From a virus (lineage: Duplodnaviria; Caudoviricetes), in the IMG/VR virus record IMGVR_UViG_3300033109_000107, positions 1 to 39,706 of that record: 39,706 bases of DNA; one strand, 5' to 3'. Positions within the stretch are counted from its first letter, which is position 1; every line of letters starts with the position of its first letter. Shown one piece after another: positions 576-15,800 of this stretch. A program made the position numbers and the translations under genes. The notes below the pieces were generated by a model, which did no database searches, was not told the DNA's origin, and was given only the letters and a program-made list of their open reading frames with translations.

Positions 576-1697
576 ATGCCTACAAACAAACTCACAGACG
601 CCCGCTGCAAGCAGATCAAAGAGCCAGGCAAGCATTTCGACGGCGGGGGAATGTACCTATTCTGCGCCCCTACCGGCTCTAAGCTCTGGCGACTGGCGTA
701 CAGGGTGAATGGCAAGGCGCAAACAGCGACCTTCGGCCCATACCCCGAAGTCTCTCTAGCTGAAGCCAGATCGAAGCGTGACGCGTTCAAACGAGACTTG
801 CGTAATGGCACATTGCCCACAAAGCGGACGCGCTCTATAGCCCTATCTGACGCGATTACGCAGTATTGGGATGGGCGCATGGATTTATCCGAGTCCTACC
901 GATCCAACGCTAAACGCGGGCTGGAGATGCACCTGACCAAGCTTCTCGATACGCAGGTATCGGACATCGCGCGGGAAATGCTGCTAGACGAACTTCGCCG
1001 CATGGACGCGAAGAAGCTCTATGTCTACGTCCGTAAGGTTAGGCGATGGGCAGGGCAGGTATTCGACTGGTGCCAAGATCATGGCTACATGCAAACCAAT
1101 CCTGCGAGAGACATACGCCCGCAGACATTCTCCACTGCTCCGGTAGAACACTTCGCCGCGCTTGAGTTATCAGAGGTTCCCGAGTTCATGGCAAGGCTGA
1201 GCATGGAATCTGACCTGCAATCCGTTCTTGCGTGTAAGCTCTTGGCGCTTACTTGGGTTCGGACGAATGAGCTTCGGATGATGGAGTGGTCGGAGATTGA
1301 CGGGGATTTGTGGCGGATTCCTGCGGGGAAGATGAAGCGCAGGAGGGATCACGTTGTTCCTCTATCACGGCAGTCAGTCGATATCCTAGAGCAACTAAAA
1401 CAGCGTGCAGGGGGTTGTTATGTGTTCTCGCACCCGTATCGGTCTGATCGTCCAATGTCAGAGAACTCCATACTTTATTTGCTCTACAGGATAGGCTACA
1501 AAGGCCGGCTCACTGGTCACGGATTCCGCACCATCGGATCAACATGGGCCAATGAAAACGGATTCAACGCTGATGCTATCGAGAGGCAACTAGCGCACGT
1601 TCCTGGTGATGTTAGGTCAGTGTATAACCGGGCTGAGTATCTGGATGAAAGAAGGCGCATGCTAGAGGCGTGGGCTGACTGGTTGATGCCTGAGTGA
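576..1697 (+). CDS. int: Phage tyrosine integrase (P4/IntA-like with N-terminal arm-binding domain)
   Basis: N-terminal DGGGMYL...GSKLWRLAYR...TFGPYPEVSLAEAR arm-binding motif; catalytic residues in VRTNELR, GKMK, HGFR, LAH, VYNR. Confidence 0.95.
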   Translation: MPTNKLTDARCKQIKEPGKHFDGGGMYLFCAPTGSKLWRLAYRVNGKAQTATFGPYPEVSLAEARSKRDAFKRDLRNGTLPTKRTRSIALSDAITQYWDGRMDLSESYRSNAKRGLEMHLTKLLDTQVSDIAREMLLDELRRMDAKKLYVYVRKVRRWAGQVFDWCQDHGYMQTNPARDIRPQTFSTAPVEHFAALELSEVPEFMARLSMESDLQSVLACKLLALTWVRTNELRMMEWSEIDGDLWRIPAGKMKRRRDHVVPLSRQSVDILEQLKQRAGGCYVFSHPYRSDRPMSENSILYLLYRIGYKGRLTGHGFRTIGSTWANENGFNADAIERQLAHVPGDVRSVYNRAEYLDERRRMLEAWADWLMPE

Positions 1698-1730
1698 TTT
1701 TGTCAGCGTGTCGCATAATTCAAGTTAGCC
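1691..1730 (+). other. Putative attI-like primary recombination site heading the left cassette array
   Basis: Ends in core GTTAGCC (1724-1730); 33/40 identical to the reverse complement of 14601-14640; not an attC hairpin. Confidence 0.7.
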
Positions 1731-1731
1731 G

Positions 1732-1917
1732 TCACAACTTGGCCTCATTGCTGAACCAGTTGCTTATGCGAACTGCCATCTGGTACGCCCCTTCACTTGC
1801 CGCGCCACCAACCGAGATGTACTGGTTGACGATGGCCCAAAATCTTAAAGCGTCTTCCTCGCTTTCGAGTACCAGCGCTATCGGATTAAACGCTCCTTCC
1901 TGCTGCATCATCTTCAT
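1732..1917 (-). CDS. Hypothetical protein (cassette L1, second gene)
   Basis: ORF MKMMQQEGAFNP...; ATGA-coupled to the upstream ORF; stop lies next to the GTTAGCC core. Confidence 0.6.
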   Translation of the reverse strand: MKMMQQEGAFNPIALVLESEEDALRFWAIVNQYISVGGAASEGAYQMAVRISNWFSNEAKL

Positions 1918-2168
1918 TCGTTGCATCCTCGCGTAAATGCCTTCAGCCGCCTCAGATACACGTCGCGCCCTTCGCCGTCTTTCCACAGCGGATCGTCCAT
2001 CTGCTTGTCCAGGTGCGGGCACTCTTCCTGTGCGCACGGAACCAGTGCTCCCAGGTCATCGTCAAACAGCGCCGCAAATATCCCGCGCCCGCATCCCTTG
2101 CCGTAGCAGTTGGCGGTTATCTCCGGCTCTTGCAACCGCAGCACTACGCCGAAAATCTTGGTGCCCAT
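1914..2168 (-). CDS. Hypothetical Cys-containing protein (cassette L1, first gene)
   Basis: 84 aa ORF with GAAAGG RBS just inside the attC inverse core. Confidence 0.65.
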   Translation of the reverse strand: MGTKIFGVVLRLQEPEITANCYGKGCGRGIFAALFDDDLGALVPCAQEECPHLDKQMDDPLWKDGEGRDVYLRRLKAFTRGCNE

Positions 2169-2183
2169 ATCAACCTTTCTGCC

Positions 2184-2243
2184 GGCTAACCCGGCATTGG
2201 TTCGGACCTGCCTTCGGCAGGCCGCACAACTTGGTCGCTAGAC
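2184..2243 (+). other. attC-like site L1 (core degenerate, GCTAGAC)
   Basis: GGCTAAC-CCGGC-ATTGGTTC...CTGCC TTC GGCAG...GCACAAC-TTGGTC-GCTAGAC; the inverse core is complementary to GTTAGCC at 1724. Confidence 0.75.
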
Positions 2244-2399
2244 ATTAATCCCCGCCTCCCTAAGCGTACTTTCTTTCCACCCAACACACCTTAGACTCAA
2301 CTGGACATCAGGCGGGGGAATCTTTCCGGCTTTCCTCCAGGCTAGGAATGTCTTGCGTGAGACTCCGAGCCACTTGCGCAGGTCTGCTTGTTTAATCAT
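2238..2399 (-). CDS. Excisionase / AlpA-like recombination directionality factor (53 aa, not in ORF track)
   Basis: Manual translation MIKQADLRKWLGVSRKTFLAWRKAGKIPPPDVQLSLRCVGWKESTLREAGINV; AlpA/Xis winged-HTH pattern; AAGGA RBS; near int. Confidence 0.8.
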   Translation of the reverse strand: MIKQADLRKWLGVSRKTFLAWRKAGKIPPPDVQLSLRCVGWKESTLREAGINV

Positions 2400-2430
2400 G
2401 TACGATCCTTGATGTTATGGTGTTGTTTGC

Positions 2431-2745
2431 TCATGCCGCGCCAACCCGCGGCATCGACTTCCTCAGTCCGGCCAGCGCCTGAGAGAATCCTATGCGCCGC
2501 TTCCATTCCCTTCCATCGACAACAACGCGGAAGCAGTCGATTCGGTCAGTCTTGAAAAACTCCATGACGTGAGTTTCGTGGCCGAAGTCGAATGACTCGA
2601 CCACCAAGCGACGGCGTAGGTCGGGAAGCGGCGCTGGATAGTCCGGCGCTGATTCTTCCATGCGAGCAACGTCACGAGACCGGCGAATCGCCGCCAGTTC
2701 TTCACGACGCTGCGCTGCTTTTTTGGTCAGTCTGTACATGATCAA
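2431..2745 (-). CDS. Hypothetical protein
   Basis: 104 aa ORF co-oriented with the early left operon. Confidence 0.6.
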   Translation of the reverse strand: MIMYRLTKKAAQRREELAAIRRSRDVARMEESAPDYPAPLPDLRRRLVVESFDFGHETHVMEFFKTDRIDCFRVVVDGREWKRRIGFSQALAGLRKSMPRVGAA

Positions 2746-2760
2746 CCTTGCACGGTAGGT

Positions 2761-3051
2761 CTACTTAACGTTCGGCGTCAGCTTCACGAAGCCGCGAGCG
2801 ACCATGTAGGGGTCGCGCTCGGGGTGATATCGCCGTGCGGCGACATTCTTCGCAGGCTTCAAGCTCAGCATCCGGCGCCAGTATTTCCCGCAGGCCAGCG
2901 CCCGCTCTTGATTCTCCGCCGCGACGTAAACCGAACTGCCGCACTGCTTGCCCTTCTTGTCCACCGGGAAGACCTCCCATTGAAGTCTCTCCGGGTTCAT
3001 TCCCCACGTTCTCGGGTCGTCTCTCACAGGTCTTTCTCCATCACTCTGCAC
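2761..3051 (-). CDS. Hypothetical protein (cassette L2; start may be GTG at 3027)
   Basis: ORF ends TPNVK*, reading across core GTTCGGC (2770-2776). Confidence 0.6.
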   Translation of the reverse strand: MQSDGERPVRDDPRTWGMNPERLQWEVFPVDKKGKQCGSSVYVAAENQERALACGKYWRRMLSLKPAKNVAARRYHPERDPYMVARGFVKLTPNVK

Positions 3052-3242
3052 GGCCAGTGGTGGCCGCAGTTTGCGCAGGCTGCCGTGTCCAGCCGGGTTG
3101 TTTTCAGCGCGGCCGGCGAGCCGTTGGCCATCAGCCAGTGGTAGGCGTGTGTCCCACAGCGGGGGCAGCGCCGCTCCACCTTGGCCGGTAGCCGCCGAAC
3201 CCGTCGCTCCAGGGGGACGCCCTCCATGCCGCTTCGCGTCAT
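3024..3242 (-). CDS. Small zinc-ribbon-like protein (cassette L2)
   Basis: CPRC and CANC pairs; likely start lies within attC L2. Confidence 0.5.
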   Translation of the reverse strand: MTRSGMEGVPLERRVRRLPAKVERRCPRCGTHAYHWLMANGSPAALKTTRLDTAACANCGHHWPCRVMEKDL

Positions 3243-3272
3243 TCCGGTCGCCCCTGAGCTAGTGCGTTGGGC
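3194..3272 (+). other. attC-like site L2
   Basis: GCCGAAC-CCGTC-GCTC(C)AGG...CCTGAGC-TAGTGC-GTTGGGC; extra C in L'' box. Confidence 0.88.
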
Positions 3273-3273
3273 C

Positions 3274-3588
3274 TCACCATCCGCGCGCCACGCACAGCGC
3301 ATCGTTCACCTGTTGTTCCAGGCTCTTGTCGGCCGCATCAGGCAGGCTCACGTCGTCGCCGTCCTGGTTGCTCAGTTGCACCCACGCCGCCCCTCGCTCC
3401 ATGCACAGGTTTAATTGCCACCCTTCCGGCAGGTGTTGGCATACCTTGTTTGCCAGCGCCAGTACGAACATTTGGCCGTCGTCGGTTGTGGGTGCTGCCG
3501 GAGCCAGTCCAAGGCGTTCCAGGTTGCGAATCACGGCGTTCTCGCCAGCTCGTATCTGTGCGCTCCGAATCTCGTCGTGCAAACTCAT
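3274..3588 (-). CDS. Hypothetical protein (cassette L3)
   Basis: MSLHDEIRSAQ..., GAGGA RBS; fills the space between two attC sites. Confidence 0.7.
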   Translation of the reverse strand: MSLHDEIRSAQIRAGENAVIRNLERLGLAPAAPTTDDGQMFVLALANKVCQHLPEGWQLNLCMERGAAWVQLSNQDGDDVSLPDAADKSLEQQVNDALCVARGW

Positions 3589-3613
3589 GATCCTGTCCTC
3601 TCCGGGCGCTGAG

Positions 3614-3681
3614 GCCCAACACTTCAATCGAGGCGACCTGTCGCATAAAGCCGCGCCAGTCGCTCACCTCCAGCGTTATGC
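3614..3681 (+). other. attC-like site L3
   Basis: GCCCAAC...GTTATGC imperfect inverted repeat; GAGGCCCAAC complements GTTGGGCCTC at 3266. Confidence 0.85.
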
Positions 3682-3682
3682 C

Positions 3683-3889
3683 TCATGCTGCGCGCCAGTG
3701 AATGTTCAGGCCGAGCAACGTGGCGCGAAGCTGCTTGTATTGCCGTTGCCAGTAGAACAGTCGCGGGTGTAGCGAGAGTGAGACCTTCCACCCTTCTCGG
3801 TGCTCCCACCGTCCGCTTTCAAATCGAAACAGCGTTACCCGGCTGTCTCCTGTCGCTCTTGCGCCAATCCAGAACATCATTCGCATCAT
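3683..3889 (-). CDS. Hypothetical Trp/Arg-rich protein (cassette L4)
   Basis: 68 aa ORF with GGAG RBS between attC L3 and L4. Confidence 0.6.
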   Translation of the reverse strand: MMRMMFWIGARATGDSRVTLFRFESGRWEHREGWKVSLSLHPRLFYWQRQYKQLRATLLGLNIHWRAA

Positions 3890-4551
3890 CGTTCTCCGTT
3901 GTTGTCGCCGGCATAACCCGGCAGTCCAGCGGACGCCGTGCCGGCTCCGCTGACTTTTGCGTTGGGGGTCTTACACTTTGCTGCCAGCTCTACGAGCCAT
4001 TGCGCGAGCGCCGGCGGCGTGTGCTCGCGTTCCGACTTCGTCACCTCCGGGCGCCACCCGGCCATGCCCTTCACCAAGCGCCGACCATCTGGCAACGTCC
4101 TGTGCTGCGCTATTACGTGTGTCGCTCCGCCCAGGTGCATGGGTATCGGCGGCACGTCCGCCGGCTCGGCGCCAACGATGTAGAGAAGCGTCAACTTCTC
4201 CGCTCGGTGCCCAAACCAATGCTGAGAAATTCCGAGCGTCCAACCTCCAAATGCATCGCGCTCGCCTGGGCGTGGAAGGGCCTGCGCCGGCCAAAGAGTC
4301 GAGCCTTCCGGGTGCTCCAGCACCCCGCCGAATTCGCGCACCAGCGCCACCGCCAGCCTGGCCAGGTTGCGCTCGTCAGCGCGCACCTTTGCAAATCTTC
4401 GCAGTCGCCCCCATCCACGGCATGGCGGGTGCGCTACCACAGGCCAAGGGCCGTCGTAGGTGCGCGCATCACGCTCCATGTCATACACGTCCACGTCAGG
4501 CAGCGCCTTGTAGTTGCTGTCTGCGCGGGCAAACAAAACCGCCACGGTCAT
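3886..4551 (-). CDS. DNA cytosine-5 methyltransferase-like protein (cassette L5)
   Basis: Start MTVAVLF; VVAHPPC (motif IV-like) and GVLEHP (motif VI-like); C-terminus reads through attC L4. Confidence 0.65.
   Translation of the reverse strand: MTVAVLFARADSNYKALPDVDVYDMERDARTYDGPWPVVAHPPCRGWGRLRRFAKVRADERNLARLAVALVREFGGVLEHPEGSTLWPAQALPRPGERDAFGGWTLGISQHWFGHRAEKLTLLYIVGAEPADVPPIPMHLGGATHVIAQHRTLPDGRRLVKGMAGWRPEVTKSEREHTPPALAQWLVELAAKCKTPNAKVSGAGTASAGLPGYAGDNNGER
3911..3967 (+). other. attC-like site L4 (57 bp)
   Basis: GCATAAC-CCGGC-AGTC(C)AGC-GGA(C)GCCG TGC CGGCTCC-GCTGACT-TTTGC-GTTGGGG: canonical R''/L''/L'/R' layout with two extrahelical bases. Confidence 0.92.
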
Positions 4552-4561
4552 GAGCCGAGAC

Positions 4562-4632
4562 CCCCAACACTGCGTTGCAGGGGACGCTCCGCCGAAAAGC
4601 CGGCGGCGCGCCCCTGAACTTGGACGTTGGGC
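4562..4632 (+). other. attC-like site L5
   Basis: CCCCAAC-ACTGC-GTTGCAGG...CCTGAAC-TTGGAC-GTTGGGC. Confidence 0.88.
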
Positions 4633-4636
4633 CTCA

Positions 4637-4855
4637 TCAGCATCCACACGTAGGCGGTTGTTCCTTCCCGGCCTTGCGGAACACCTCATCCCGGAAGTCT
4701 CGGCACAGCTTGTCCAGGGTCAGCGAGTCCAGGTCGCTCAGTGGGTAGCACGGGAGTTCCTGCATCCCGTCCTGCTTCAGCCCGGGCTTTCCAACCGCCC
4801 GCACAAAGTTCGGCGTCTGGAACGGTTGCAGTTCAACTTGTAGCGTTGCTTTCAT
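4637..4855 (-). CDS. Hypothetical protein (cassette L6)
   Basis: 72 aa ORF with AAGGA RBS between attC L5 and L6. Confidence 0.7.
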   Translation of the reverse strand: MKATLQVELQPFQTPNFVRAVGKPGLKQDGMQELPCYPLSDLDSLTLDKLCRDFRDEVFRKAGKEQPPTCGC

Positions 4856-4885
4856 GTCCTTGTCCTTTCTTCGTAGTCACCAGAG

Positions 4886-4972
4886 GCCCAACCCTACGGT
4901 CGACATCGCTCCCTTCGGTCGCTGGACCTCGCGCGATAAGGCCGCGCGAGGCCGGTCACCTACACGTTCGGC
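4886..4972 (+). other. attC-like site L6
   Basis: GCCCAAC...CCTCGCGCG ATAAGGC CGCGCGAGG...GTTCGGC. Confidence 0.82.
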
Positions 4973-5123
4973 GTCACTTCCCAATCGGTGCAGTCGTCAA
5001 TGTCGATGCGTAGGTCGTAACCGTTCTCGCGCTCAAAATGTTTCGTCAGCCATACGTCTCCCATTCGGCTGCAACCGATGCAGCGGTAACGCTTGCCGTC
5101 CTTGTAGGTGCAAAACAGCTTTC
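4966..5123 (-). repeat. 158 bp exact inverted copy of 14450-14607
   Basis: Base-by-base comparison; identity stops at the GTT/AAC core. Confidence 0.92.
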
Positions 5124-5159
5124 TTCAGCATTTCCGATTATCACTTTTTCAGCCATCAT
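4967..5159 (-). pseudogene. Chimeric cassette remnant: N-terminus MMAEKVIIGNAE fused out of frame to the 3' half of the 14332-14610 gene
   Basis: RBS and ATG at 5159; junction at 5123; the cassette's two cores are non-complementary. Confidence 0.65.
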
Positions 5160-5181
5160 CACTCCGTAGTTACGTTTTGCC

Positions 5182-5251
5182 TGCCAACCCGTCGCTCAAG
5201 CGGGACGCGCCGCGATAAAGCTGCGTCGCGCCCCTTAGCTCTACGTTAGGG
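5182..5251 (+). other. attC-like site L7
   Basis: TGCCAAC-CCGTC-GCTCAAGC-GGGACGCG...CGCGCCCCTTAGC-TCTAC-GTTAGGG. Confidence 0.88.
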
Positions 5252-5255
5252 AACT

Positions 5256-5666
5256 TCATTTCACGATGCCGTATTTCCGCGTAGCCCCTGCCACTGCCGG
5301 ATTAACGACCCTCGATTTCCATCCGTCGCGGGTCTTTTGTTGGAACCGCTCGGCGAATGTTTCCTCGCGCAGCAACTTGCCGCCCATGAGACGATCCAGC
5401 CGCTGCACACCCTTACGCACGTTCCCGCTTCCGTTCCCTGCATTGCAAAGCGTGCGCAGCCGCAGGCGCAAATCGGGCGGAAACGAATCAAACTCCCTCG
5501 CTACCAGTTCGACCGCGCTTTCGTGGCTCAGTTGGGTAAAAATCGACTGCGCCACCTTGTCGGTGTTCTTCGAGCTAAAGAAGCCCGCTCCGTTCTCTCG
5601 CGGTACATACGCCTTCCACTGCGATAGCGGCACGTTAAACGCCAGCATCTCTAATGCTATGCTCAT
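5256..5666 (-). CDS. Hypothetical protein (cassette L8)
   Basis: MSIALEMLAF..., GGAG RBS; 136 aa between attC L7 and L8. Confidence 0.7.
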   Translation of the reverse strand: MSIALEMLAFNVPLSQWKAYVPRENGAGFFSSKNTDKVAQSIFTQLSHESAVELVAREFDSFPPDLRLRLRTLCNAGNGSGNVRKGVQRLDRLMGGKLLREETFAERFQQKTRDGWKSRVVNPAVAGATRKYGIVK

Positions 5667-5684
5667 TCTTGTTCTCCGCCAGTT

Positions 5685-5771
5685 CCCTAACCTTACGTTG
5701 CAGGGGACGCCGATTAAGCGTCGTTGGTCTTGGCGGGCGCTTCTAAGGCGCCCCTGAACTCCACGTTGGGC
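5685..5771 (+). other. attC-like site L8
   Basis: CCCTAAC-CTTAC-GTTGCAGG...CCTGAAC-TCCAC-GTTGGGC; AGTTCCCTAAC complements GTTAGGGAACT at 5245. Confidence 0.88.
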
Positions 5772-6016
5772 ATTTTGGTCTTTTTCACCGGCACAGCCGC
5801 TGCCAGTGCGTTGCACATCGCCTCACCAGCAGCGAACAGCGCCTGTAGTTCAGGCGTCCTCTCGCCTGGCTGGACGCACTCCTCCCGCAGCCGCCCGTCG
5901 TTGGTGGCGATGTAAACCCATGTCGGAGCATTGCTCCAGCCGGGGCCGTTACAGCGTTCCGGTACTACGGCGACAACCCGCTCGCCGTAGGCCAGTTTGA
6001 TGGTTCGTGCCTTCAT
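5714..6016 (-). CDS. Hypothetical protein (cassette L9)
   Basis: GGAGGGAG RBS; C-terminus PNVEFRG... is encoded by attC L8. Confidence 0.7.
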   Translation of the reverse strand: MKARTIKLAYGERVVAVVPERCNGPGWSNAPTWVYIATNDGRLREECVQPGERTPELQALFAAGEAMCNALAAAVPVKKTKMPNVEFRGALEAPAKTNDA

Positions 6017-6029
6017 TCTCCCTCCTGAT

Positions 6030-6088
6030 GCCCAACAGGGCCATGCACCGGACCCGCTGAAGCGGGCCGGTGATGTTCGACGTTAGGC
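6030..6088 (+). other. attC-like site L9 (59 bp)
   Basis: GCCCAAC-AGGGC-CATGCACC-GGACCCGCT GA AGCGGGCC-GGTGATG-TTCGAC-GTTAGGC. Confidence 0.88.
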
Positions 6089-6120
6089 CCCAATGCCGAA
6101 GCACCGGGGCCGCCCCATGT

Positions 6121-6333
6121 TCAGAACCGCATCGCCTCGGCAATGTCACGAATCCGCATCCCAAGCAGCGGCGCAAGCGTCTTCTTGCTCTCTTCCAGAC
6201 GCTCAATCTCTTGGCGCAGCGTGGAAATCTTGGCGTCGATGTTCTCTTCCACGGTCGGGTTGTGGTCGCGCCCGCCAATCAGTTGCCCTGCTGCCCTGTT
6301 TTCGCATTTCGCCATCTGTGCTTGTTCGTACAT
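6121..6333 (-). CDS. Hypothetical coiled-coil protein (cassette L10)
   Basis: MYEQAQMAK..., AGGAG RBS. Confidence 0.7.
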   Translation of the reverse strand: MYEQAQMAKCENRAAGQLIGGRDHNPTVEENIDAKISTLRQEIERLEESKKTLAPLLGMRIRDIAEAMRF

Positions 6334-6366
6334 TTCGATTTCTCCTGCCCGTCTCAAGGGTGCCGG

Positions 6367-6447
6367 GCCTAACCCGTCGATCAACACGGACGCCCTTCGG
6401 CGTCGCTGCGCGCCGCCTACGTGCGCCGGTTATCTAGGTCGTTATCA
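6367..6447 (+). other. attC-like site L10 (last in left array)
   Basis: GCCTAAC-CCGTC-GATCAACACGGACGCC...TGCGCCGGTTATC-TAGGTC-GTTATCA. Confidence 0.85.
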
Positions 6448-6455
6448 TCCTCAAA

Positions 6456-6920
6456 CTAGAACGGAATGTCGTCCTCGAAGTCGTTGAAGCCGCCGCCCGA
6501 AGACGGTGCGGCCGGCTTCGACGGAGCCGGCCGGCTGCCGCCGCCGCTGCTCTCGCGCGGTCCGGCATCGCCCATGCCCTCACGCCGGCCCAGCATCTGC
6601 ATCTCGTTGGCTTCGATCTCGGTGGTGTAGCGCTCCTGGCCTTCCTTGTCGGTCCACTTGCGCGTACGGATGCGGCCTTCGAGGTAAACCTGCGAGCCCT
6701 TCTTGAGGTACTGGCCGGCAATCTCGGCCAGCTTGCGGTAGAAGACCACGCGATGCCACTCGGTGATTTCCTTCTTCTCGCCCGACTGCTTGTCTTTCCA
6801 GCTCTCGGTGGTCGCCACGCGGATGTTGCACACCGCGTCGCCGTTGGGCATGTAGCGTGTCTCCGGGTCCGCACCGAGGTTGCCGATGAGGATTACTTTG
6901 TTGACGCTTGCCATGCTCAT
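6456..6920 (-). CDS. ssb: Single-stranded DNA-binding protein
   Basis: [21 protein letters not shown]... OB fold and acidic DDIPF tail. Confidence 0.97.
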
Positions 6921-7648
6921 TCCTTTACGTTTGATTTGGTGAATTTCGTCCAGGCGGTCGAAAGCTTCTTTCCGTCCTCAGTCTTTGCCGCCCCGAGGAA
7001 GTACGGGACCGCTGCCAGCATGTCGTTTGTCAGACCTGTAGTGAATCGCAAGTGCTGGTCTACTTGTTGAATGTCTCCTGTTTCGCGGTAGATTGTTACC
7101 GCTTCTTTGACGGAATCAAAGACGATTACACGTTCTTCATCCGTCAAGTCATCTGCGCACGATTGCGATGGGGTGATGGCTCCATTCCCTTGTTGAATCC
7201 CGGTGTCTTTGTACTTGGTGCCATCCCATCGTCCCATGTAGATGTCAGCAGCTACGCCAAGCATTTTGAGCGCAACCGATAGGGCATCCGTGGTTGCCAT
7301 CTTGAAAGACTCGTCATTGTGGTGAATGCCGTTTTTGTCTTTTTCAAGCAGCATTGATCCGCCGATGCCTGGAATTGGCGCAGACCACCCTTCGTCCTGT
7401 TTGGTATAAACCAGAACACTTGCAAAGGCGAACATCTGCCCGTCAAGCCCAGGCTCAGTCCAGAGGCGCGTTACTTCGTATTTCCAGCCAATCCCGCAAG
7501 GCCCGAAGGTGTCGTGCATAACCTTGTAGCGCCATTGCGGGTTGACATCTGTCATCCCCGACAATCGACCACCTTTGATCGCCTTGAGTGCGTCCTTTGG
7601 CGGTCTTGCCAGTTGTTCCCATGCGCTGATTTTCTCGGGTGCATTCAT
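6917..7648 (-). CDS. Single-strand annealing recombinase (Rad52/Sak-like)
   Basis: [16 protein letters not shown]...FGPCGIGW...[22 protein letters not shown] pattern; located directly upstream of ssb. Confidence 0.7.
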
Positions 7649-7692
7649 ATTCCTGCTCCTGTCCTAATTGCTGCCAATATTGGATGCCACGA

Positions 7693-7797
7693 TCAGACAT
7701 GATCATCAATCCATGCCTTCCAGAAAATCGACGCTATCGCCACACCTGCCAGAAGGCCGAAGAGAAACCACTTCATAATTTCGTAGTCACTCATCAT
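7693..7797 (-). CDS. Small membrane peptide (34 aa)
   Basis: Manual translation MMSDYEIMKWFLFGLLAGVAIASIFWKAWIDDHV; overlaps neighbouring ORFs. Confidence 0.45.
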   Translation of the reverse strand: MMSDYEIMKWFLFGLLAGVAIASIFWKAWIDDHV

Positions 7798-7888
7798 CGC
7801 CCATTCCATAACTGATCGCTGATCCAACAAGCCACGCGACCGCGCACATGACGACCGTATAGACGAATACCACTAACAGGAAGTCCAT
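7787..7888 (-). CDS. Small membrane peptide (33 aa)
   Basis: Manual translation MDFLLVVFVYTVVMCAVAWLVGSAISYGMGDDE; TAATG coupling and GGAGG RBS. Confidence 0.5.
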   Translation of the reverse strand: MDFLLVVFVYTVVMCAVAWLVGSAISYGMGDDE

Positions 7889-8223
7889 TACTTGCCCTCC
7901 ACCTTGAATCGAATCCATCCTTCTGCGGCATCAAGTAGCCATTCATTGATCCGCTGGTAGGCCCGAGTAATTCCAGAAGCATCCAAGTCACGCATGGCCG
8001 TCCCGAACTCCGAGAGAATCCGAATCATTGCGTTAGGCTCGGTGCCGTATTCGGCGCACATCGCGTTGCTAATGACATCGATCAACTCAAGCCGGTTGGA
8101 TACGTCAAACAGTTCCGTGACCTGGCGCTTGATTTCCTGCTCGGCTTCGCGCTCCTGCTGGTCAGTCATGAACATCCTGCGTTCCAAGTCAATAGGCATT
8201 GATATTCCGTCGCTGAATCCCAT
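7888..8223 (-). CDS. Hypothetical protein, first gene of the left early operon
   Basis: 111 aa ORF with AAGGAG RBS. Confidence 0.65.
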   Translation of the reverse strand: MGFSDGISMPIDLERRMFMTDQQEREAEQEIKRQVTELFDVSNRLELIDVISNAMCAEYGTEPNAMIRILSEFGTAMRDLDASGITRAYQRINEWLLDAAEGWIRFKVEGK

Positions 8224-8609
8224 GATGTCTCCTTGTTCGTCCCGGTGGTGCCTCGCCGGGAAGCGGCTTCTTCCAGCCTTCCCGACCCTTGGGGGTCAAT
8301 CCAAGCAGCTACTAGCGCCGCTGCTCAAGGCATCCTCGCCGGTCATCCGGGCCGGCACGGTTGAATCAACACTCCACTTTCTCAACTGGACTACTGACTT
8401 CCGCAGTAGCTAGATGGAGGGCGGCTCACCGGCTCCACTCGCCCGGTATGGCTTTTAGCGAGAACAAGCCGCCTTTCATCTAGCTACTGCACCTACCGGG
8501 TGATTCACCTATCGCTGCGGTCCTGCGTGGCCTAGCCCGTTGCGCCTGCGATCTGTGACAGTGCCCTTCGGTTTTGCTGCATCGGCTTTAACTTCATCCG
8601 ATGGTTCGT

Positions 8610-8637
8610 ATCTTACCAGACTAAGCGAACAAGTCAA
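8610..8637 (-). promoter_or_regulatory. Putative PL promoter with overlapping operator CTTA-N6-TAAG (8612-8625)
   Basis: TTGACT-16-TAAGAT on - strand; the same palindrome overlaps the PR -10. Confidence 0.6.
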
Positions 8638-8668
8638 GTGGAAAATTCGCGCGCTAAGTTATGCGGGC

Positions 8669-8692
8669 AAAAAAATCCCGCTGGTAGCGGGA
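8669..8692 (-). terminator. Rho-independent terminator after the cI-lipoprotein unit
   Basis: ATCCCGCT acc AGCGGGAT hairpin followed by a T-run on - strand. Confidence 0.7.
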
Positions 8693-8700
8693 TGATTTGG

Positions 8701-9063
8701 TTACTGGCAGAAGGTTTGTATTCGCCCTGTAGCGTCCCTGTAAGTTTGGCAATTCACCATGCGGGGCGGCTGAGGCGGTGAGGATAATACTTGCGGCTGG
8801 CTTTGATGTAGAAGCTGTGAGCCTATAGCAGCGCGTCTTGCATCCTTACTATCTTCGATCCTGGCTTGCTCGCTCGACAGCCTCCAATCACATTGATGCC
8901 CGCGTAAATGAAGCTCCCTTGCAGCAGCATCACGATTGCTTGCCCGTGTGAATACCGAATAACAGAGGTCTTCATTGGTTGCTGCCCTAGCTTCTTTTCG
9001 TTGCATTGCTTGGGTTGAGCAGCCAGTTATTGACGCCGCAAGCAACAATACGAGTATGCGCAT
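8701..9063 (-). CDS. Lipoprotein downstream of the repressor
   Basis: MRILVLLLAASITGC signal peptide with lipobox Cys. Confidence 0.7.
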   Translation of the reverse strand: MRILVLLLAASITGCSTQAMQRKEARAATNEDLCYSVFTRASNRDAAARELHLRGHQCDWRLSSEQARIEDSKDARRAAIGSQLLHQSQPQVLSSPPQPPRMVNCQTYRDATGRIQTFCQ

Positions 9064-9141
9064 TCCTTGCCTCCGATAAATATATGACTTTAGCATTAGT
9101 CAAAGGCGCTCTAGCCCTAGTCTTGCGCACTCGGGGTTGGG

Positions 9142-9579
9142 CTATCGTGTCCCGGTGCGCTTGTGAGGGGTTGTTTTTGGTGGGGCCTTCCCGAGTGTCA
9201 TGGCGATCTGCTGATTCTTCTTCGCCCGCTCTAAAGCTGCGGCCTTTTCCTCTGGCAAGAGCCAGTCAAAGGCATTCATCCACTCGGTTTGTTCGTCGGT
9301 CATCTTGGATGCCGGGGGCATGTCTTTAAGACGTTTGGGTAGCTTGCCATGATTTACCCAATCCGGTGAATAGCCCAAACGGACTAATCTAGCCAAGGAG
9401 TCTTCGCCCAATTTCTCGTTTGGGTCGGTACTGGTCTTGATCTGACCGACGCGGCCCGAACTTCTTCCGATCATCTCGGCAATTCTGTTATTCAGGCCGT
9501 GCGCGTCTTCCGCTCCCTGTTCAAGAGCGATTTCCTTCAGACGGTCGAATAGCTTTCCCATGCTTACCATGCTATTCAT
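9142..9579 (-). CDS. CI-like repressor (HTH; no S24 peptidase domain seen)
   Basis: Divergent from cro; IAEMIGRSSGRVGQI HTH-like segment and SPDWVNHGK motif. Confidence 0.7.
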   Translation of the reverse strand: MNSMVSMGKLFDRLKEIALEQGAEDAHGLNNRIAEMIGRSSGRVGQIKTSTDPNEKLGEDSLARLVRLGYSPDWVNHGKLPKRLKDMPPASKMTDEQTEWMNAFDWLLPEEKAAALERAKKNQQIAMTLGKAPPKTTPHKRTGTR

Positions 9580-9597
9580 TCATCTGCTTACTGCGCC

Positions 9598-9626
9598 TTG
9601 CTTTTTAACACTTAGCGGAGTAAGAT
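9598..9626 (+). promoter_or_regulatory. Putative PR promoter with operator CTTAGCGGAGTAAG (9611-9624)
   Basis: TTGCTT-17-TAAGAT just upstream of cro. Confidence 0.65.
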
Positions 9627-9633
9627 AGTCAGT

Positions 9634-9792
9634 ATGAACGCTAACAAAATCATTGACGCTCTCGGCGGAACTAGCGCGGTAGCCAAGCTGTTTGAGGTTA
9701 CGACCGGAGCGGTATCGCAGTGGCGCAAGAAGGGCATTCCAAAAGCTCGGTTGCTGCATTTGAAGTCTATTCGGCCGGATTTGGTTGCGTGA
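9634..9792 (+). CDS. cro: Cro-like repressor (52 aa, not in ORF track)
   Basis: MNANKIIDALGGTSAVAKLFEVTTGAVSQWRKKGIPKARLLHLKSIRPDLVA: typical Cro/YdaS HTH. Confidence 0.88.
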   Translation: MNANKIIDALGGTSAVAKLFEVTTGAVSQWRKKGIPKARLLHLKSIRPDLVA

Positions 9793-9837
9793 GTCCATGC
9801 AAAAAATTTTGCGCCATCTTCAACTGGTAACTCAACG

Positions 9838-10191
9838 ATGAATCCTATGAATTCTCTTGATATACCACTTGCCTTCGGAGTCTCAAACGCCCCGATCTGG
9901 TTGGACGACAAGGCCATATCTAGTGTTTCGTCCTACCGGGAAGCTGTCCGTATCTGCTGGATTCATCGTCGCATTCAAGGGATGACGCAACGGACTGCCG
10001 CTGAACTGTGCGGGCTGTACCCGTCACATGTCTCGGATTACCTCTCCGACGACGAAAGCAAGAGGAATCTGCCAGCAGATCGAATCCAGGCATTTGAATC
10101 CCTCTGCGGAAACCGTGCAATCACCCAATGGGAAATGCGCCAGAGGGGATTGACGATCATGGAAGAGGTCATCAGCAGGAAGGCTGCGTAG
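9838..10191 (+). CDS. CII-like HTH transcriptional regulator
   Basis: MTQRTAAELCGLYPSHVSDYL HTH; position after cro. Confidence 0.7.
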   Translation: MNPMNSLDIPLAFGVSNAPIWLDDKAISSVSSYREAVRICWIHRRIQGMTQRTAAELCGLYPSHVSDYLSDDESKRNLPADRIQAFESLCGNRAITQWEMRQRGLTIMEEVISRKAA

Positions 10192-10733
10192 TGGCTCAAC
10201 GTGCAAAGCTCGGCAAAAAAGTCCGCTTCAATGTTTTTAAGCGCGATGCCTTCACCTGCCAATACTGCGGGAGTAAGCCGCCCGCTGTGGTCTTAGAGGT
10301 AGATCACATACATCCAGTATCAAAGGGCGGCACAGACGAAATAGATAATCTCATTACTGCTTGCTTTGATTGCAACAGGGGTAAGTCGTCCGGGCTTCTA
10401 TCAGCGATCCCCCAGAGCCTTGAAGAAAGGGCGGAGCAACTACGCGAGAAGCACGAGCAAATCAAAGCATACGAACGTCTTTTAAAGACAATTAAGCGCA
10501 AGGAAGATGCCGACATTGATCGCGTTGAGGATGTCTTCAGGGAATACTTCAACGGATTTGTCTTTTCTGAAAATTTCAGAGACTCAGTGAGGTTGTTCCT
10601 TCAGAAGCTGCTTAGAGATGAGGTTGAGAGTGCAATGCACAAGGCATGCTCTCGCATCAAGACAAGACACGAAGCAATCAAATACTTCTGCGGAATTTGC
10701 TGGACGATGATTAGGAATAACAAGAATGCCTAA
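10191..10733 (+). CDS. HNH endonuclease
   Basis: RFNVFKRDAFTCQYCG...LEVDHIHPVSKGG...NLITACFDCNRGK. Confidence 0.9.
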   Translation: MAQRAKLGKKVRFNVFKRDAFTCQYCGSKPPAVVLEVDHIHPVSKGGTDEIDNLITACFDCNRGKSSGLLSAIPQSLEERAEQLREKHEQIKAYERLLKTIKRKEDADIDRVEDVFREYFNGFVFSENFRDSVRLFLQKLLRDEVESAMHKACSRIKTRHEAIKYFCGICWTMIRNNKNA

Positions 10734-11532
10734 TCGAATCCTCAAGGAAACCATCTGCACTAGCGAAGAGGTCGAAGCCCTCTCACCAGAGCAAGAGGTT
10801 TTCTTCTATCGCTTGATGGTCGTATGCGACGACTTTGGTCTCATGGATGCGCGGCCCGCAATACTGAAAGCACGGTGCTATCCATTGAAATCAATTGATA
10901 TCAAGCGAATTCAATTGAACTTGGATGTTTTGCAGCAGGTTGGGTTGATTTCAACCTACATGGTGGCCGGGAAACCGTACCTGCACATAGCAAATTGGGA
11001 AAAGCACCAGCAGATCAGGGCGAAGCGGGCGAAATACCCCATGCCAAGTGAATCTGATAGCACTTGCAATCAATTGATATCAGATGCACCCGTAATCCAA
11101 TCCAATCCAATCCAATCCGAATCCAATCCGAATCCAATCCAATCAGCGGGGAAAAAGGCATCCCCGCAGTTTGAGCAAGCATGGACAGAGTACCCGCGTA
11201 AGGGCGACACAAACAAGCGTGGTTCTCTAAAAGCATGGAACGCAAGGGTCAGTGATGGCGAAGACCCGGATGCGATGTTGGCTGGAGTCATTCGTTACGC
11301 GGCCTACTGTCGTGCCATGCAAACCGAGAACGCCTACATCAAGCAGCCGGCAACATTCTTCGGCCCGGACAAGCATTACCTGACCTCTTGGGAAATCCCG
11401 CAAAGGAGTCCGCATGCAAACCATCGGAACACTGCTGCCGACACTATCGCAGCCTTCACAGGACAACGACAGCCAGCCGTACCAGAAGGGAGTTCCGGAG
11501 TCGTGGTTGAGGGCAGCGGAACTCGTGTTTGA
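10726..11532 (+). CDS. Phage replication initiator protein
   Basis: MPNRILKETI...DDFG N-terminal domain, low-complexity linker, FEQAWTEYPRK...YIKQPATFF C-terminal domain. Confidence 0.8.
   Translation: MPNRILKETICTSEEVEALSPEQEVFFYRLMVVCDDFGLMDARPAILKARCYPLKSIDIKRIQLNLDVLQQVGLISTYMVAGKPYLHIANWEKHQQIRAKRAKYPMPSESDSTCNQLISDAPVIQSNPIQSESNPNPIQSAGKKASPQFEQAWTEYPRKGDTNKRGSLKAWNARVSDGEDPDAMLAGVIRYAAYCRAMQTENAYIKQPATFFGPDKHYLTSWEIPQRSPHANHRNTAADTIAAFTGQRQPAVPEGSSGVVVEGSGTRV
11094..11144 (+). repeat. AATCC(G) tandem microrepeat within the replication gene
   Basis: aatccaatccaatccaatccaatccgaatccaatccgaatccaatccaatc. Confidence 0.85.
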
Positions 11533-11821
11533 ACAACTCTCGATTCACTACGGAGCTTCCAGGATGTCCGCGCACTGGAACGGGATCAATGCAGACAAGG
11601 CGAAGGCGTATTGGGGCCGCAAGCTGATGCACATGCGCCGCGAGTCGATTGGTTATGCCCTGCGCCATCTTCCGAACAATCCTCCGACTGTCGAAGAGTT
11701 CTGCGCGATTGCTAGCCGTTGCCCGCCCCCCACTTTCAAGGCCCTTCCGTGGCGGTTGAGTGAAGAGGATCGGCAGAAGGGTAAGGAGAGGATTGCGAAG
11801 ATTCGGGAGATGTTCAAGTGA
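11414..11821 (+). CDS. Replication accessory protein (possible helicase loader)
   Basis: Overlaps the initiator gene; LPNNPPTVEEF motif; positional inference. Confidence 0.55.
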   Translation: MQTIGTLLPTLSQPSQDNDSQPYQKGVPESWLRAAELVFEQLSIHYGASRMSAHWNGINADKAKAYWGRKLMHMRRESIGYALRHLPNNPPTVEEFCAIASRCPPPTFKALPWRLSEEDRQKGKERIAKIREMFK

Positions 11822-11890
11822 TCCCCTGCATGGGCGGCTGGTGCCTTTCCCGCATTCGTTGCGCTCACTACCACTCGGAGATGCAAGTAG

Positions 11891-12109
11891 ATGAACCCTG
11901 CGAAAGACTCTGCGGCGAAGTCGAAGAACCGGAGCCAATGGAAACGAATCGACAAGTACGCGATACAAAACCCGCCGTGGCGAATATCAATGTCATACGT
12001 CGACGGAAACACGATGTACGTAGTTTGGAAAGACGGGACGCCGGGGCCGCTGGCGTTTAAGGAAGATTTGGACGACTGCTTTGATTGGATCGAACATGAA
12101 AAAGACTGA
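11891..12109 (+). CDS. Hypothetical protein
   Basis: ORF in the right early operon; start uncertain. Confidence 0.45.
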   Translation: MNPAKDSAAKSKNRSQWKRIDKYAIQNPPWRISMSYVDGNTMYVVWKDGTPGPLAFKEDLDDCFDWIEHEKD

Positions 12110-12305
12110 ATGGTTTCCTTGCTCTGTAAAACCGGTTAGGCCGGGGTTGTATGAGGTTGTTCTTAGTTCTGGTTTCGATCATCCTGAGCTTTGTAGTTTC
12201 AATGGTGGAAGGTGGCGAAAATGGAATGACTGTAAAGCTAAGGCAGTCGGAGAAGCGCGTCCTGGCTATATGCCTGACGACTACTGGCGCGGAGTGAAGA
12301 AATGA
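12096..12305 (+). CDS. Hypothetical phage protein
   Basis: MKKTEWFPCSVKPVRPGLYEV...WRG, a common phage small-protein pattern. Confidence 0.65.
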   Translation: MKKTEWFPCSVKPVRPGLYEVVLSSGFDHPELCSFNGGRWRKWNDCKAKAVGEARPGYMPDDYWRGVKK

Positions 12306-12700
12306 ATAACTACCCAGCCTGCTTCAACTCCCAAGCTGAATACGACCTCTGGAAAGATGCGCGCCATATCAGCGCAACACGCTGCCAGCCATGCACAGAT
12401 TGCACGGTCGATTACAAGGTAGAAATGTGCCTACAAGACCGCTGCGCCCATCCTGAAGTCCGCTTCCGATTGGATGAGGATGGATTCACGGAAGGTTACT
12501 TCCCTCCTATTGCCAATGGTTATGAGATTGCAGACAAAGCGATGCGGATGATCCTGGGTGGCCCGATCAAGATCAGCCACTTCAACCGGAAATTCAAAAT
12601 CACGCCTGTTGATTTTCCGGTCGCTGGTGATGTTGTTGGCGTGTATGCCATCGGTGTGACGGTAGGACAGATTGAGCAGGACATGCTGGAGGTTCTGTGA
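12302..12700 (+). CDS. Hypothetical Cys-rich protein
   Basis: ATGA-coupled ORF with CQPCTDC motif. Confidence 0.65.
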   Translation: MNNYPACFNSQAEYDLWKDARHISATRCQPCTDCTVDYKVEMCLQDRCAHPEVRFRLDEDGFTEGYFPPIANGYEIADKAMRMILGGPIKISHFNRKFKITPVDFPVAGDVVGVYAIGVTVGQIEQDMLEVL

Positions 12701-13005
12701 ATCGCTGCCCAACCTGCGGAGCGCCAGAGAAACTTAGTGACCCTCAACGTGACAGATATTGGGCAATGCTCCAAGGCTACTGCAAGCACCCGAAGATGAT
12801 CGCGCAAGGGGTGAAGCCTTCTGGCCTGCATGAATACCTTGCTGACCTCTACCTGCCGCGCAAAGAGGTAAAGACGCCGATGGGGGTGAAGAGTGTTCGT
12901 GGATCGGTCAGCAGGAAGGCCGGGCCGGGGAAGATGACGATGAGCGAGTATATGGATCAAGTCGAAGCCTGGGCAGTTGAGTGTGGATTGTGGGAGGCGG
13001 AATGA
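12697..13005 (+). CDS. NinB-like protein
   Basis: SDPQRDRYWAML...MSEYMDQVEAWAVE resembles NinB; precedes NinG. Confidence 0.65.
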   Translation: MNRCPTCGAPEKLSDPQRDRYWAMLQGYCKHPKMIAQGVKPSGLHEYLADLYLPRKEVKTPMGVKSVRGSVSRKAGPGKMTMSEYMDQVEAWAVECGLWEAE

Positions 13006-13403
13006 AGGGGCCATCGCTTCCAGCCCTCCAAGCAAAAGCAGACAAGATCATGTCCATTTACATCCGCATGAAGTACGCAGATGCAGATGGCTTGGTTAAG
13101 TGCGTTTCCTGTGGCCGAACGTTTCACTGGAAGGATGTTGATTGCGGGCACTTTGTTCCCAAGTCTCGCGGGGCGGCTATCCGGTACGTTGAAGAAAATG
13201 TGCATCCCGAGTGTAGAGGTTGTAACTCGTTCAATGATGGGCACTTGATCGGTTATACCCTGTACATGATCGATATGTACGGAAGGGAAAAGATTGACGA
13301 ACTCAAGCGAGAAGCAAGGAAGGTAATGAAGCCCTCAGAGAAGCGGGCGGTGGTCGAAGAAGCTATTGCTTACTACACGCAAGCGTTGAAAGCACTTGCA
13401 TGA
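13002..13403 (+). CDS. ninG: NinG/Rap-like recombination endonuclease
   Basis: YIRMKYAD...CVSCG...DCGHF...RYVEENVHPECRGCN. Confidence 0.85.
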   Translation: MKGPSLPALQAKADKIMSIYIRMKYADADGLVKCVSCGRTFHWKDVDCGHFVPKSRGAAIRYVEENVHPECRGCNSFNDGHLIGYTLYMIDMYGREKIDELKREARKVMKPSEKRAVVEEAIAYYTQALKALA

Positions 13404-13612
13404 TCTGCGGCAACAAAAACAAGCCTACCCTAGACGGCTATTGGGCGCAGAACGGCACAGAAGTAGTGATGGATGTCGAGCTAGGCCCGATTGTGGTTAG
13501 GAAGGCTGTATGGATAGAGGATCACATGTCACGTGAATGCAGGTTCGATCAGAAGACGGAAGAGATGTGCGGAGGATGTGAGAGGTTTAACTGCGAGGTA
13601 ACCGGCGCATGA
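13400..13612 (+). CDS. Hypothetical protein
   Basis: Coupled ORF; last codons (FNCEVTGA) are encoded by attC R2. Confidence 0.6.
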   Translation: MICGNKNKPTLDGYWAQNGTEVVMDVELGPIVVRKAVWIEDHMSRECRFDQKTEEMCGGCERFNCEVTGA

Positions 13613-13663
13613 CGGCGAGCGCAGCGATGCCGTCAGGCGTCCGTGTTGACCGTGTAGTTATGC
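13585..13663 (-). other. attC-like site R2
   Basis: - strand GCATAAC-TACAC-GGTCAACACGGACGCC...TGCGCCGGTTACC-TCGCA-GTTAAAC; very similar to attC L10. Confidence 0.85.
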
Positions 13664-14256
13664 GCCTGGCTGCGCTGTTCGTGCAGCCGGACGGATGCTA
13701 TGCGGGACTGCCCGGCGTTGATGCGTGGCCGGAGCATCGAGACGCGAGGCGCTACGCGGGACCGCTGCCGGTTGTTGCGCACCCGCCCTGCCAATTGTGG
13801 GGCGCGATGGCGAACGTGAACTATGCCCGATGGGGCGGCGAGCACAACCGGCCTGGGAATGATGGTGGTTGCTTCTCTTCGGCGCTTGAAAGCGTGCGGC
13901 GGTTTGGTGGGGTGCTGGAGCACCCAGCAAAGACGAAGGCATGGGCCGCGCACGGACTGGCGCAACCGACCGGAATTGGCTGGCAGCGAACCATTGATGG
14001 TGGGTGGGTGTGCGAGGTTTGGCAGAGCGCCTACGGCCACCGGGCGAACAAGGCGACATGGCTTTACTACCACGGCACGAACCCGCCATTTGAACTGCGG
14101 TGGGCGAGGCCGGAAGGGACGCACCAGATTGGGTTTCACGACCAACGAGGGAAGGCGGCAAACAAGCCGACCCTCGGCAAGCGAGAGGCGAACGCTACGC
14201 CTTTGGAATTTCGGGACGAACTGCTGCGCCTGGCGATGATGGCGCATAACGACTGA
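13609..14256 (+). CDS. DNA cytosine-5 methyltransferase-like protein (cassette R2; alternative start 13660)
   Basis: LAALF, VVAHPPC, GVLEHP, YGHRANKATWLY; paralogue of 3886-4551. Confidence 0.65.
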   Translation: MTASAAMPSGVRVDRVVMRLAALFVQPDGCYAGLPGVDAWPEHRDARRYAGPLPVVAHPPCQLWGAMANVNYARWGGEHNRPGNDGGCFSSALESVRRFGGVLEHPAKTKAWAAHGLAQPTGIGWQRTIDGGWVCEVWQSAYGHRANKATWLYYHGTNPPFELRWARPEGTHQIGFHDQRGKAANKPTLGKREANATPLEFRDELLRLAMMAHND

Positions 14257-14307
14257 GTTGTGGGGCGGGCCGCTTGCGGCACGTCCCACACGAACGACGG
14301 GTTCGGC
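14244..14307 (-). other. attC-like site R1
   Basis: - strand GCCGAAC-CCGTC-GTTCGTGT-GGGACG...GCCGC AA GCGGC...CCCACAAC-TCAGTC-GTTATGC. Confidence 0.82.
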
Positions 14308-14331
14308 GGCACTGGAAACGGAGGACAAGCG

Positions 14332-14610
14332 GTGAAACACATTGACGACTGGCTGGATGACCCGACAACCGGCCCGGCTGACGTAAAGGAATGGCTTGAG
14401 CATTTCCGCAGGCCGGCGATTGACAAGGACTACAAGTGGCTGGCAGCGCGAAAGCTGTTTTGCACCTACAAGGACGGCAAGCGTTACCGCTGCATCGGTT
14501 GCAGCCGAATGGGAGACGTATGGCTGACGAAACATTTTGAGCGCGAGAACGGTTACGACCTACGCATCGACATTGACGACTGCACCGATTGGGAAGTGAC
14601 GCCGAACTAG
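14332..14610 (+). CDS. Hypothetical protein (cassette R1)
   Basis: GGAGG RBS and GTG start; ends TPN* at the core. Confidence 0.75.
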   Translation: MKHIDDWLDDPTTGPADVKEWLEHFRRPAIDKDYKWLAARKLFCTYKDGKRYRCIGCSRMGDVWLTKHFERENGYDLRIDIDDCTDWEVTPN

Positions 14611-14640
14611 ATTTATACGACACGCCGACAAAAACACTCA
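14601..14640 (-). other. Putative attI-like site heading the right cassette array
   Basis: - strand tgagtgtttttgtcggcgtgtcgtataaatctaGTTCGGC, matching 1691-1730. Confidence 0.7.
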
Positions 14641-14779
14641 ACCAAGGAGAACAAATGAACGAACCATGTAAAGGATGCCGGTATCTCTCTTGGCTATGGG
14701 GCTGTCGAATCTGCATGAAGCACGATTACCAAGCGGGGGTAAGGTTCAGCAAGTGTCAAGACTACAAGGAACGAGACTG

Positions 14780-15280
14780 ATGGGTTTTAGCGAACACTTG
14801 GCTGAATGCGTTGTTTCCTCCGACCTCCAATCCAAAGACTCATCAATCCGCGATGTTGAGTTCGTTGCTGCGCTCTCTGGTGCTTCGTCACTTGGGGCTG
14901 ACCTACTCCGGGCGAAGGACTACGACGCAAAGGCCCTGAAACGGGCGATCCTGGCCCTTAGCGCAAGAGTTAGGAAGAGACTCAAGCTCTCCATGTCACC
15001 CGCTCAGTTACTTTCAACCACGGCGATATTTGAGCTAATGCAGTGGCAGTGCCGGGACTGTTGGGGAGCGTCTGAGCAGATCATCGGCGGAATACGGGTA
15101 ACTTGCCCGACATGCGGAGGGGTAGGGGTGCATCGGTGGTCAGATAAGGATAGGGCCAATACCTCGGGGTTCCACGTCGAGACTTGGCATAAGTGGGCGA
15201 AGAAGTATGAGATCGTGCTATCGATGGCGAGGGGCCATGACGGGAACACAGAGCATGCGGCTAGGGTGAGGTTGGGGTGA
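14780..15280 (+). CDS. Late antitermination protein Q-like
   Basis: CRDCWG and CPTCGGVG zinc finger; immediately upstream of a strong promoter and the late genes. Confidence 0.65.
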   Translation: MGFSEHLAECVVSSDLQSKDSSIRDVEFVAALSGASSLGADLLRAKDYDAKALKRAILALSARVRKRLKLSMSPAQLLSTTAIFELMQWQCRDCWGASEQIIGGIRVTCPTCGGVGVHRWSDKDRANTSGFHVETWHKWAKKYEIVLSMARGHDGNTEHAARVRLG

Positions 15281-15314
15281 CATACCACAAAACAGCCCAT
15301 CCGTGTATCAATCC

Positions 15315-15792: not shown

Positions 15793-15800
15793 TGAAGTTT

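Follow-up and report, generated by a model that had tools for sequence, protein, structure and literature searches.

A cassette fragment repeated across two inverted attC arrays of a lambdoid provirus, a likely product of integron-type recombination

The stretch of DNA analysed here (the window, 39,706 nt) is the whole of a viral record, a lambdoid provirus estimated to be 54% complete, with genes for a P4-like integrase, SSB, a repressor region, a replication protein, NinB, NinG, terminase, an SU10-type portal and capsid, a holin and a lysozyme. The phage integrase (576..1697, + strand), which carries the Arm-DNA-bind_3, Phage_int_M and Phage_integrase domains, does not match the integron-integrase model and is thereby ruled out as an IntI; that model, TIGR02249, found nothing in the 39.7 kb of this 54%-complete record, so that the available sequence lacks the IntI gene of a complete integron. 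None of the 58 ORFs scanned fell into an invertase Pfam family, as would be expected of an invertase-controlled segment. Inside the left of the two arrays described below lies an AlpA/HTH_17-like excisionase candidate (2238..2399, - strand), whose stop overlaps the first attC at its R', which is of the GCT type; in three relatives of the integrase xis directly adjoins int, but here an attI-like site and the first cassette separate the two. Genes for tRNA-Gly(TCC) and tRNA-Asp(GTC) follow the Q-like gene at 15722-15880, and short tandem repeats within the replication gene (11088-11146) mark a possible origin.

The provirus carries two attC-type arrays in opposite orientation, one in each early operon and each with an attI-like site at its outer end. 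The left array (1724..6447, + strand) comprises 11 segments with antisense genes and 10 intact attC sites, all on the top strand (at 2184, 3194, 3614, 3911, 4562, 4886, 5182, 5685, 6030 and 6367, spanning 2184-6447). The right array, on the - strand, has two attC sites between 13585 and 14307: that of a cassette we call R1 (14244..14307) and the terminal one (13585-13663) of cassette R2 (13585..14249), whose phrog_12600 gene is again antisense. All 12 sites have the attC hairpin with its R'', L'', L' and R' boxes, as identified with models of our own that were trained partly on these very sites and are to that extent circular, the covariance model among them having no base pairs and scoring sequence alone. 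Within the left array, half an attC (2431-2470) and a fused, hairpin-less core (2740-2776) around a 102-aa gene look like a decayed cassette boundary. None of the 80 loci collected as terminase relatives matched the arrays.

Cassettes of a complete integron have complementary end cores, and 11 of the 12 window cassettes with two identifiable ends (a set that omits the segment with the xis-like gene, which has no intact attC) have end cores complementary at 7/7 positions. Shuffling gave 1.9 matching cassettes on average, and not one of 100,000 shuffles reached 11. The sole exception is the cassette at 4967-5245, the subject of what follows. The longest frames of the window's cassettes run antisense to their array instead of in sense from a Pc promoter as in an integron, an orientation also found in 128 of 164 attC hits in viral loci (15 sense, 3 without a gene and 18 at edges, in a set enriched by the queries used); transcription of such cassettes would come from the early promoters. 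With at least two attC sites and no nearby intI, the window's arrays are, on sequence grounds, CALINs by definition and not a complete integron. A second phage (G005) has two inverted arrays as well, each headed by a 42-bp site that ends at GTT (L119:5562-5603 and 13962-14003, corresponding to G005 25562-25603 and 33962-34003; 41/42 identical); this heading site, a hairpin with a T-run, is of another type than the window's attI-like site and is perhaps derived from an attC.

The left attI-like site (1690..1726, + strand, crossover G at 1724) begins the left array just after the integrase stop, and its counterpart on the right (14605..14640, - strand, crossover G at 14607) stands directly ahead of R1. 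The two agree at 24 of 28 positions, form no hairpin and end in G|TT; their left half may also resemble XerC arms. Scans for the site returned 2 genome, 8 viral and 5 metagenome matches, six of which (L087, L098/L103, L099, L101 and L105) were dropped as chance, having no matching upstream DNA and, in the five that were searched, no attC. The remaining matches represent seven distinct sites besides the window's two, and across these nine places the first cassettes differ from GTT onward; a complementary R'' of the first cassette is present in 7/9 and missing for L107 and L110. L109 and L110 have upstream DNA in common and diverge exactly at GTT, while L106, a bacterial-looking locus, has sense cassettes behind the same site. 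In this last locus (L106:1350-5050) a SoxB-like gene, so named by reading, lies upstream and the first cassette has an HNH motif. At L100:5975-6019 and L104:2451-2501, right after the lysis genes, stands a variant of the site that has a direct repeat of GTTRRRY and a short palindrome upstream.

Judged by its conservation and by the change of cassettes at G|TT, then, the boundary site is attI-like. It is given no stronger name because no intI was seen beside any copy, including that in the 5.6 kb of L106. A 39-kb phage contig (L086; G001:C5) that has this attI-like site together with an array of three cassettes comes from a bin labelled Ignavibacteriaceae, a putative host link; the one IntI examined in that genome bin has no such site beside it. 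Behind the integrase genes of five relatives of the phage integrase no attI-like site was found, a first viral scan with a long attI-like motif gave 0 matches, and a plasmid search with the site returned four weak partial matches only. From TAA to TT the spacer of the site measures 6 nt, one less than in the Shewanella attI as quoted in PMC9892861.

The two arrays are linked by a repeat. A preliminary description of this DNA had 4966-5123 matching the reverse complement of 14450-14607 exactly, which holds for 158/158 bases; the match can be extended on neither side. Self-comparison on both strands revealed no other exact repeat of at least 22 bases in the window, direct or inverted, which excludes chance as the source of this pair. 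The left copy (4966..5123, + strand) sits at attC L6 (4886..4972, + strand; R'' GCCCAAC, R' GTTCGGC, crossover G at 4966) and consists of the crossover G and the first 157 bp of R1, the 3' part of the R1 gene; the right copy (14450..14607, - strand) is the start of the intact R1, directly behind the right attI-like site. The same description had placed the end of identity at GTT, correctly: the outer end of the repeat is the G of G|TT, in attC L6 on the left and in the attI-like site on the right. Beyond that G the two partners share no identity, which rules out a homology-driven outer joint. No cassette-side repeat between arrays was found in six related records scanned.

Cassette R1 (14250..14606, - strand; 357 bp) has ends complementary at 7/7 and an antisense gene (14332-14610, + strand) for a 92-aa protein with no Pfam, PHROG or Atlas assignment. 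Homologues occur in 10 viral loci, in 8 of which they start at GTT after a stop, with seven different left neighbours, and 5/10 retain an attC with complementary R''; by this sequence context R1 is a mobile cassette. Similarity of the homologues to the left copy ends at the repeat boundary, whereas similarity to R1 continues; since the homologous cassettes start at GTT and continue only along R1, the right copy is the native one and the left copy a fragment. The inner end of the repeat falls mid-gene in R1, 200 bp before the end of R1's attC. The idea that the same cassette occupies both positions accordingly fails, and with it a whole-cassette duplication: the left array has 157 of 357 bp, lacks R1's attC altogether and has mismatched end cores.

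The copying event is, to judge from sequence divergence, recent on the scale of these homologues. In the 9 of 10 loci with a near-full-length match, other phages carry homologues of the 158 bp at 79-86% identity (the tenth aligns over 48 bp only), and homologues in sequencing run X14 are at 85-95%, against 100% between the window's two copies. Zero differences in a non-functional piece put the divergence of the copies below 1.9% (95%).

The left copy lies in a chimera. Cassette 4967-5245 (279 bp) starts with GTTCGGC and has the R'' TGCCAAC, complementary at 4/7. Behind the R1 fragment stands the 5' end of a gene for an N6/N4 DNA methylase, a stub of 12 codons (MMAEKVIIGNAE; 5124..5159, - strand) that is out of frame with the fragment and begins at an inferred internal G|TT; next comes the attC of the former methylase cassette (5182..5251, + strand; R'' TGCCAAC). 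A first scan for the stub gave 0 matches; a later scan with the gene start gave 61 loci in 58 distinct contexts, and the full N6_N4_Mtase gene is present in L004. The closest intact methylase cassette, L175 (859 bp, with a 258-aa gene and a complementary start core), is identical at 119/128 bases over stub and attC and has the same R''. The window retains the last 122 bp of such a cassette, with 737 bp replaced by 157 bp of R1, leaving both the methylase gene and the R1 fragment dead. The N-terminus MAEKV.IGNAELW (L134-L194) fronts many different methylase bodies in the 58 viral contexts, mostly followed by an AAC core, and reads as that of a very mobile family of antisense methylase cassettes.

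What was lost from this cassette appears to have had crossover cores at both ends. The TT of the inner joint is seen in the window, and of the 58 homologous contexts 56 have a G directly ahead of the stub; since this G completes a G|TT heptamer, the missing 737 bp would have run from G|TT to G|TT, as the corresponding 737 bp do in the intact L175 cassette, and the cut would fall at a GWT of the attG type, its G supplied by the homologues. In L175 the joint heptamer is the sole GTT with at least 3/4 RRRY matches in 764 nt (9 GTT and 14 GWT in all), and in L160 it is one of two per 764; a random break would strike so core-like a place with a chance of 0.1-2%, a figure from a post hoc test that takes the inferred G as given. 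The CRGM hotspot motif (+6 to +9), by reading of the sequence, is matched at 2/4. On its R1 side the joint resembles a core under none of the models, and this is the sole non-canonical side. Homology does not account for it: in register, R1 and the methylase agree at 1/12 positions with L175 at the inner joint, and clean microhomology was rejected, with none in register and two near-misses that each predict a product 1-3 bases off.

The preliminary description had read the repeat as the footprint of recent site-specific mobilisation. The part that stands is an outer joint at both crossovers, an inner joint at the inferred G|TT and identity of 100% against 79-86% elsewhere; the part that does not is the duplication of a whole cassette, the left copy being truncated within a dead, chimeric one. 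We consider it likely that the R1 fragment was recently placed at attC L6 by an integron-type tyrosine recombinase, presumably derived from the host. Integrons recombine by exchange of a single strand, with resolution through replication (PMC3458562, PMC5027507); between inverted attC sites, where replicative resolution is reported to be abortive, the rare products combine one canonical crossover with an illegitimate second joint (PMC4792948); and excision is described as able to use neighbouring GWT sites, deleting DNA (10.1101/2022.09.11.507474).

To the particular route set out here, with loss of the DNA from attC L6 to the internal G|TT, then strand exchange between attC L6 and the attI-like site, and closure by an irregular join, we give an even chance. 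Recombination of attC L6 with the core-like, attG-type G|TT inside the methylase gene would have removed 737 bp, leaving attC L6 with G|TTCAGC. This attC L6 would then have traded one strand with the inverted right attI-like site, in the same or a sister genome, and the intermediate, normally abortive, would have been sealed at a point 157 nt into R1 by a single non-canonical join. Genome order would thus be kept and the right R1 stay intact, and the outcome would be the dead methylase, the dead R1 fragment and the 158-bp inverted repeat. This order of steps is provisional, as it does not follow from one genome; a deletion-only intermediate was not seen among the 58 methylase contexts, which do not constitute a targeted search.

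Somewhat unlikely, yet the strongest of the alternatives, is a passage through a free circle. Here replicative excision would have released the whole of R1 for insertion at attC L6 or at the G|TT within the methylase gene; R1's last 200 bp, attC included, would later have been lost by aberrant excision cutting at its own attC, and the methylase body removed between G|TT cores. Replicative recombination has been proposed to explain cassette duplication (PMC3458562), R1 is itself a mobile cassette, and on this route the TT of the inner joint would be a true attC crossover. The scheme nevertheless takes more steps: a first-position cassette must be excised, inserted at an attC and then lose its end aberrantly, on top of the 737-bp deletion. 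R1's attC has left no trace on the left. A 3-nt near-miss of microhomology, between R1 positions 157-159 and the end of R1's attC, is suggestive, but slippage there would retain one G that is absent here, giving an identity of 159 and not 158.

It is a good deal more doubtful that the fragment came from outside, from a co-infecting or sister phage with R1 behind attC L6, and was joined by phage annealing or recombination proteins with no exchange between this genome's own arrays. Other phages do carry R1 homologues in arrays of the left type (L089/G003 and L090), and this phage encodes SSB, NinB and NinG; a further product of 243 aa gives a weak hint of Rad52 similarity (16% of one cluster at 0.95). 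The donor, however, would have to match this R1 exactly, where known homologues are 79-86% identical (85-95% in X14); it would still require a site-specific step, and the homology-free inner joint at G|TT would be left unexplained.

Whether the junctions are sound bears on all of these readings. Run X1, possibly the source sample, provides a separate short-word assembly, not independent biology. There the repeat is a contig of its own, of exactly 158 bases, with a depth of 121.7, less than the 149-171 expected from two full copies. Among the contig ends listed, four stop 30 bases inside the repeat, one from each side, and these flanking contigs (depths 86.5, 73.4, 75.3 and 84.8) are identical to the window over the parts compared. 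Their reach of 30 letters into the repeat is one under the 31-letter bridging rule, and the contigs do not pair outer with inner flanks. Misassembly of the repeat junctions appears unlikely.

Several other features of run X1 were recorded. Over window positions 1500-15500, outer contigs stand at 85-86x and inner ones at 73-75x, and the outer contigs are of sufficient length to extend about 200 and 1,800 bases beyond the window ends. Compared with the window, the sole contig across the 3' end of ssb (6466-6656, 76x) shows 7 base differences and a 3-base gap. A joint from 5255 to 4886 (depth 12.5, likeness 85) was not counted, since it probably belongs to an array of another organism. Many further contigs match attC L6, with a summed depth above 500, which is in line with a shared pool and no proof of a host array; runs X2-X4 and X14 contributed single related cassettes only.

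That the joints are false, or real but mispaired in a true genome with an inverted middle (whole R1 at attC L6, the chimera at the right attI-like site), is the least probable explanation, and a very improbable one: 158 bp exceed a typical short read, the contigs cannot phase the flanks, and the repeat depth of 121.7, the outer-to-inner step in depth and the divergent contig over the ssb 3' end are unexplained, but all four joints stand at full depth in the second assembly, a wrong pairing would relocate the chimera and not abolish it, and the gene order that follows from the pairing in the window is the usual one for lambdoid phages, with xis/int behind the leftward operon and the nin genes, Q-like gene and terminase behind the rightward operon.

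The 9,326 bp between the inverted copies (5124..14449) contain the rest of the left array, ssb, the immunity region, replication and nin genes, R2 and part of R1. Homologous inversion of this middle through the 158-bp repeat is geometrically possible, given the arrangement of the copies. In invertase-driven phage segments and shufflons (Gin/Cin, Rci), inverted repeats flank a block of genes. Unlike those systems, the repeat in the window is cassette cargo and not a dedicated site, and no invertase family appeared among the 58 ORFs.

The arrays resemble the 17 phage CALINs reported by Qi et al. in 2023, whose attC sites IntI1 was shown to use (PMC9892861), in having attC-bounded cassettes in a phage lacking intI, with methylases among the cargo. 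One phage from that study (MW202573) has a 52-bp stretch in common with the window's attC family at 98%, and its genes too are antisense to attC. They differ from what the main text of PMC9892861 describes in the attI-like sites of integrase-less phage arrays (beyond Shewanella M16-3), the pairing of inverted arrays in both early operons, the systematically antisense cargo and the recombination scar. A literature search, with subscription papers outside its scope, returned no report of paired inverted arrays with attI-like sites, or of exchange between arrays, in a phage.

The scar itself has partial precedents. As in the cassette duplication described by Loot et al. in 2012 (PMC3458562), one copy remains in place and another starts exactly at G|TT, but the window copies 157 of 357 bp, without the attC, into a second, inverted array. 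Like the products described by Escudero et al. in 2016, it combines one canonical crossover with one illegitimate joint; those arose from pairs of attC sites or of attI sites in laboratory constructs with IntI1, the attI x attI pair being able to invert the segment between (PMC4792948), whereas the window would present, in a prophage, a naturally occurring pair of an attC and an attI-like site, with gene order kept. The inner joint recalls attG secondary sites in having a GWT core within a gene, with deletions upon excision; attG was shown for Escherichia coli and Vibrio cholerae chromosomes with IntI1-3 (10.1101/2022.09.11.507474), and the window's CRGM match is 2/4.

The phage attC clusters published so far might be passive remnants. 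A non-functional fragment with zero mismatches and both joints at G|TT argues that these arrays recombine now, without a phage integron integrase, and suggests that phages reassort their accessory genes, methylases for instance, with anti-phage cassette machinery borrowed from the host. The scar would offer a natural example of a product so far known only as a rare laboratory event, and it names candidate recombination substrates: attC L6, the attI-like site and the internal G|TT. Tentatively, and with our confidence falling short of even, we propose that in a group of temperate phages integron platforms are maintained as inward-facing pairs, one platform per early operon, with attI-type docking sites of their own and backward cassettes read by the early promoters, and that a host recombinase acting in trans may move DNA between the arrays, kill cargo at internal G|TT sites and flip the immunity-replication block. 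If this is true, the scar would be a natural record of single-strand exchange between an inverted attC and attI, rescued by an illegitimate join.
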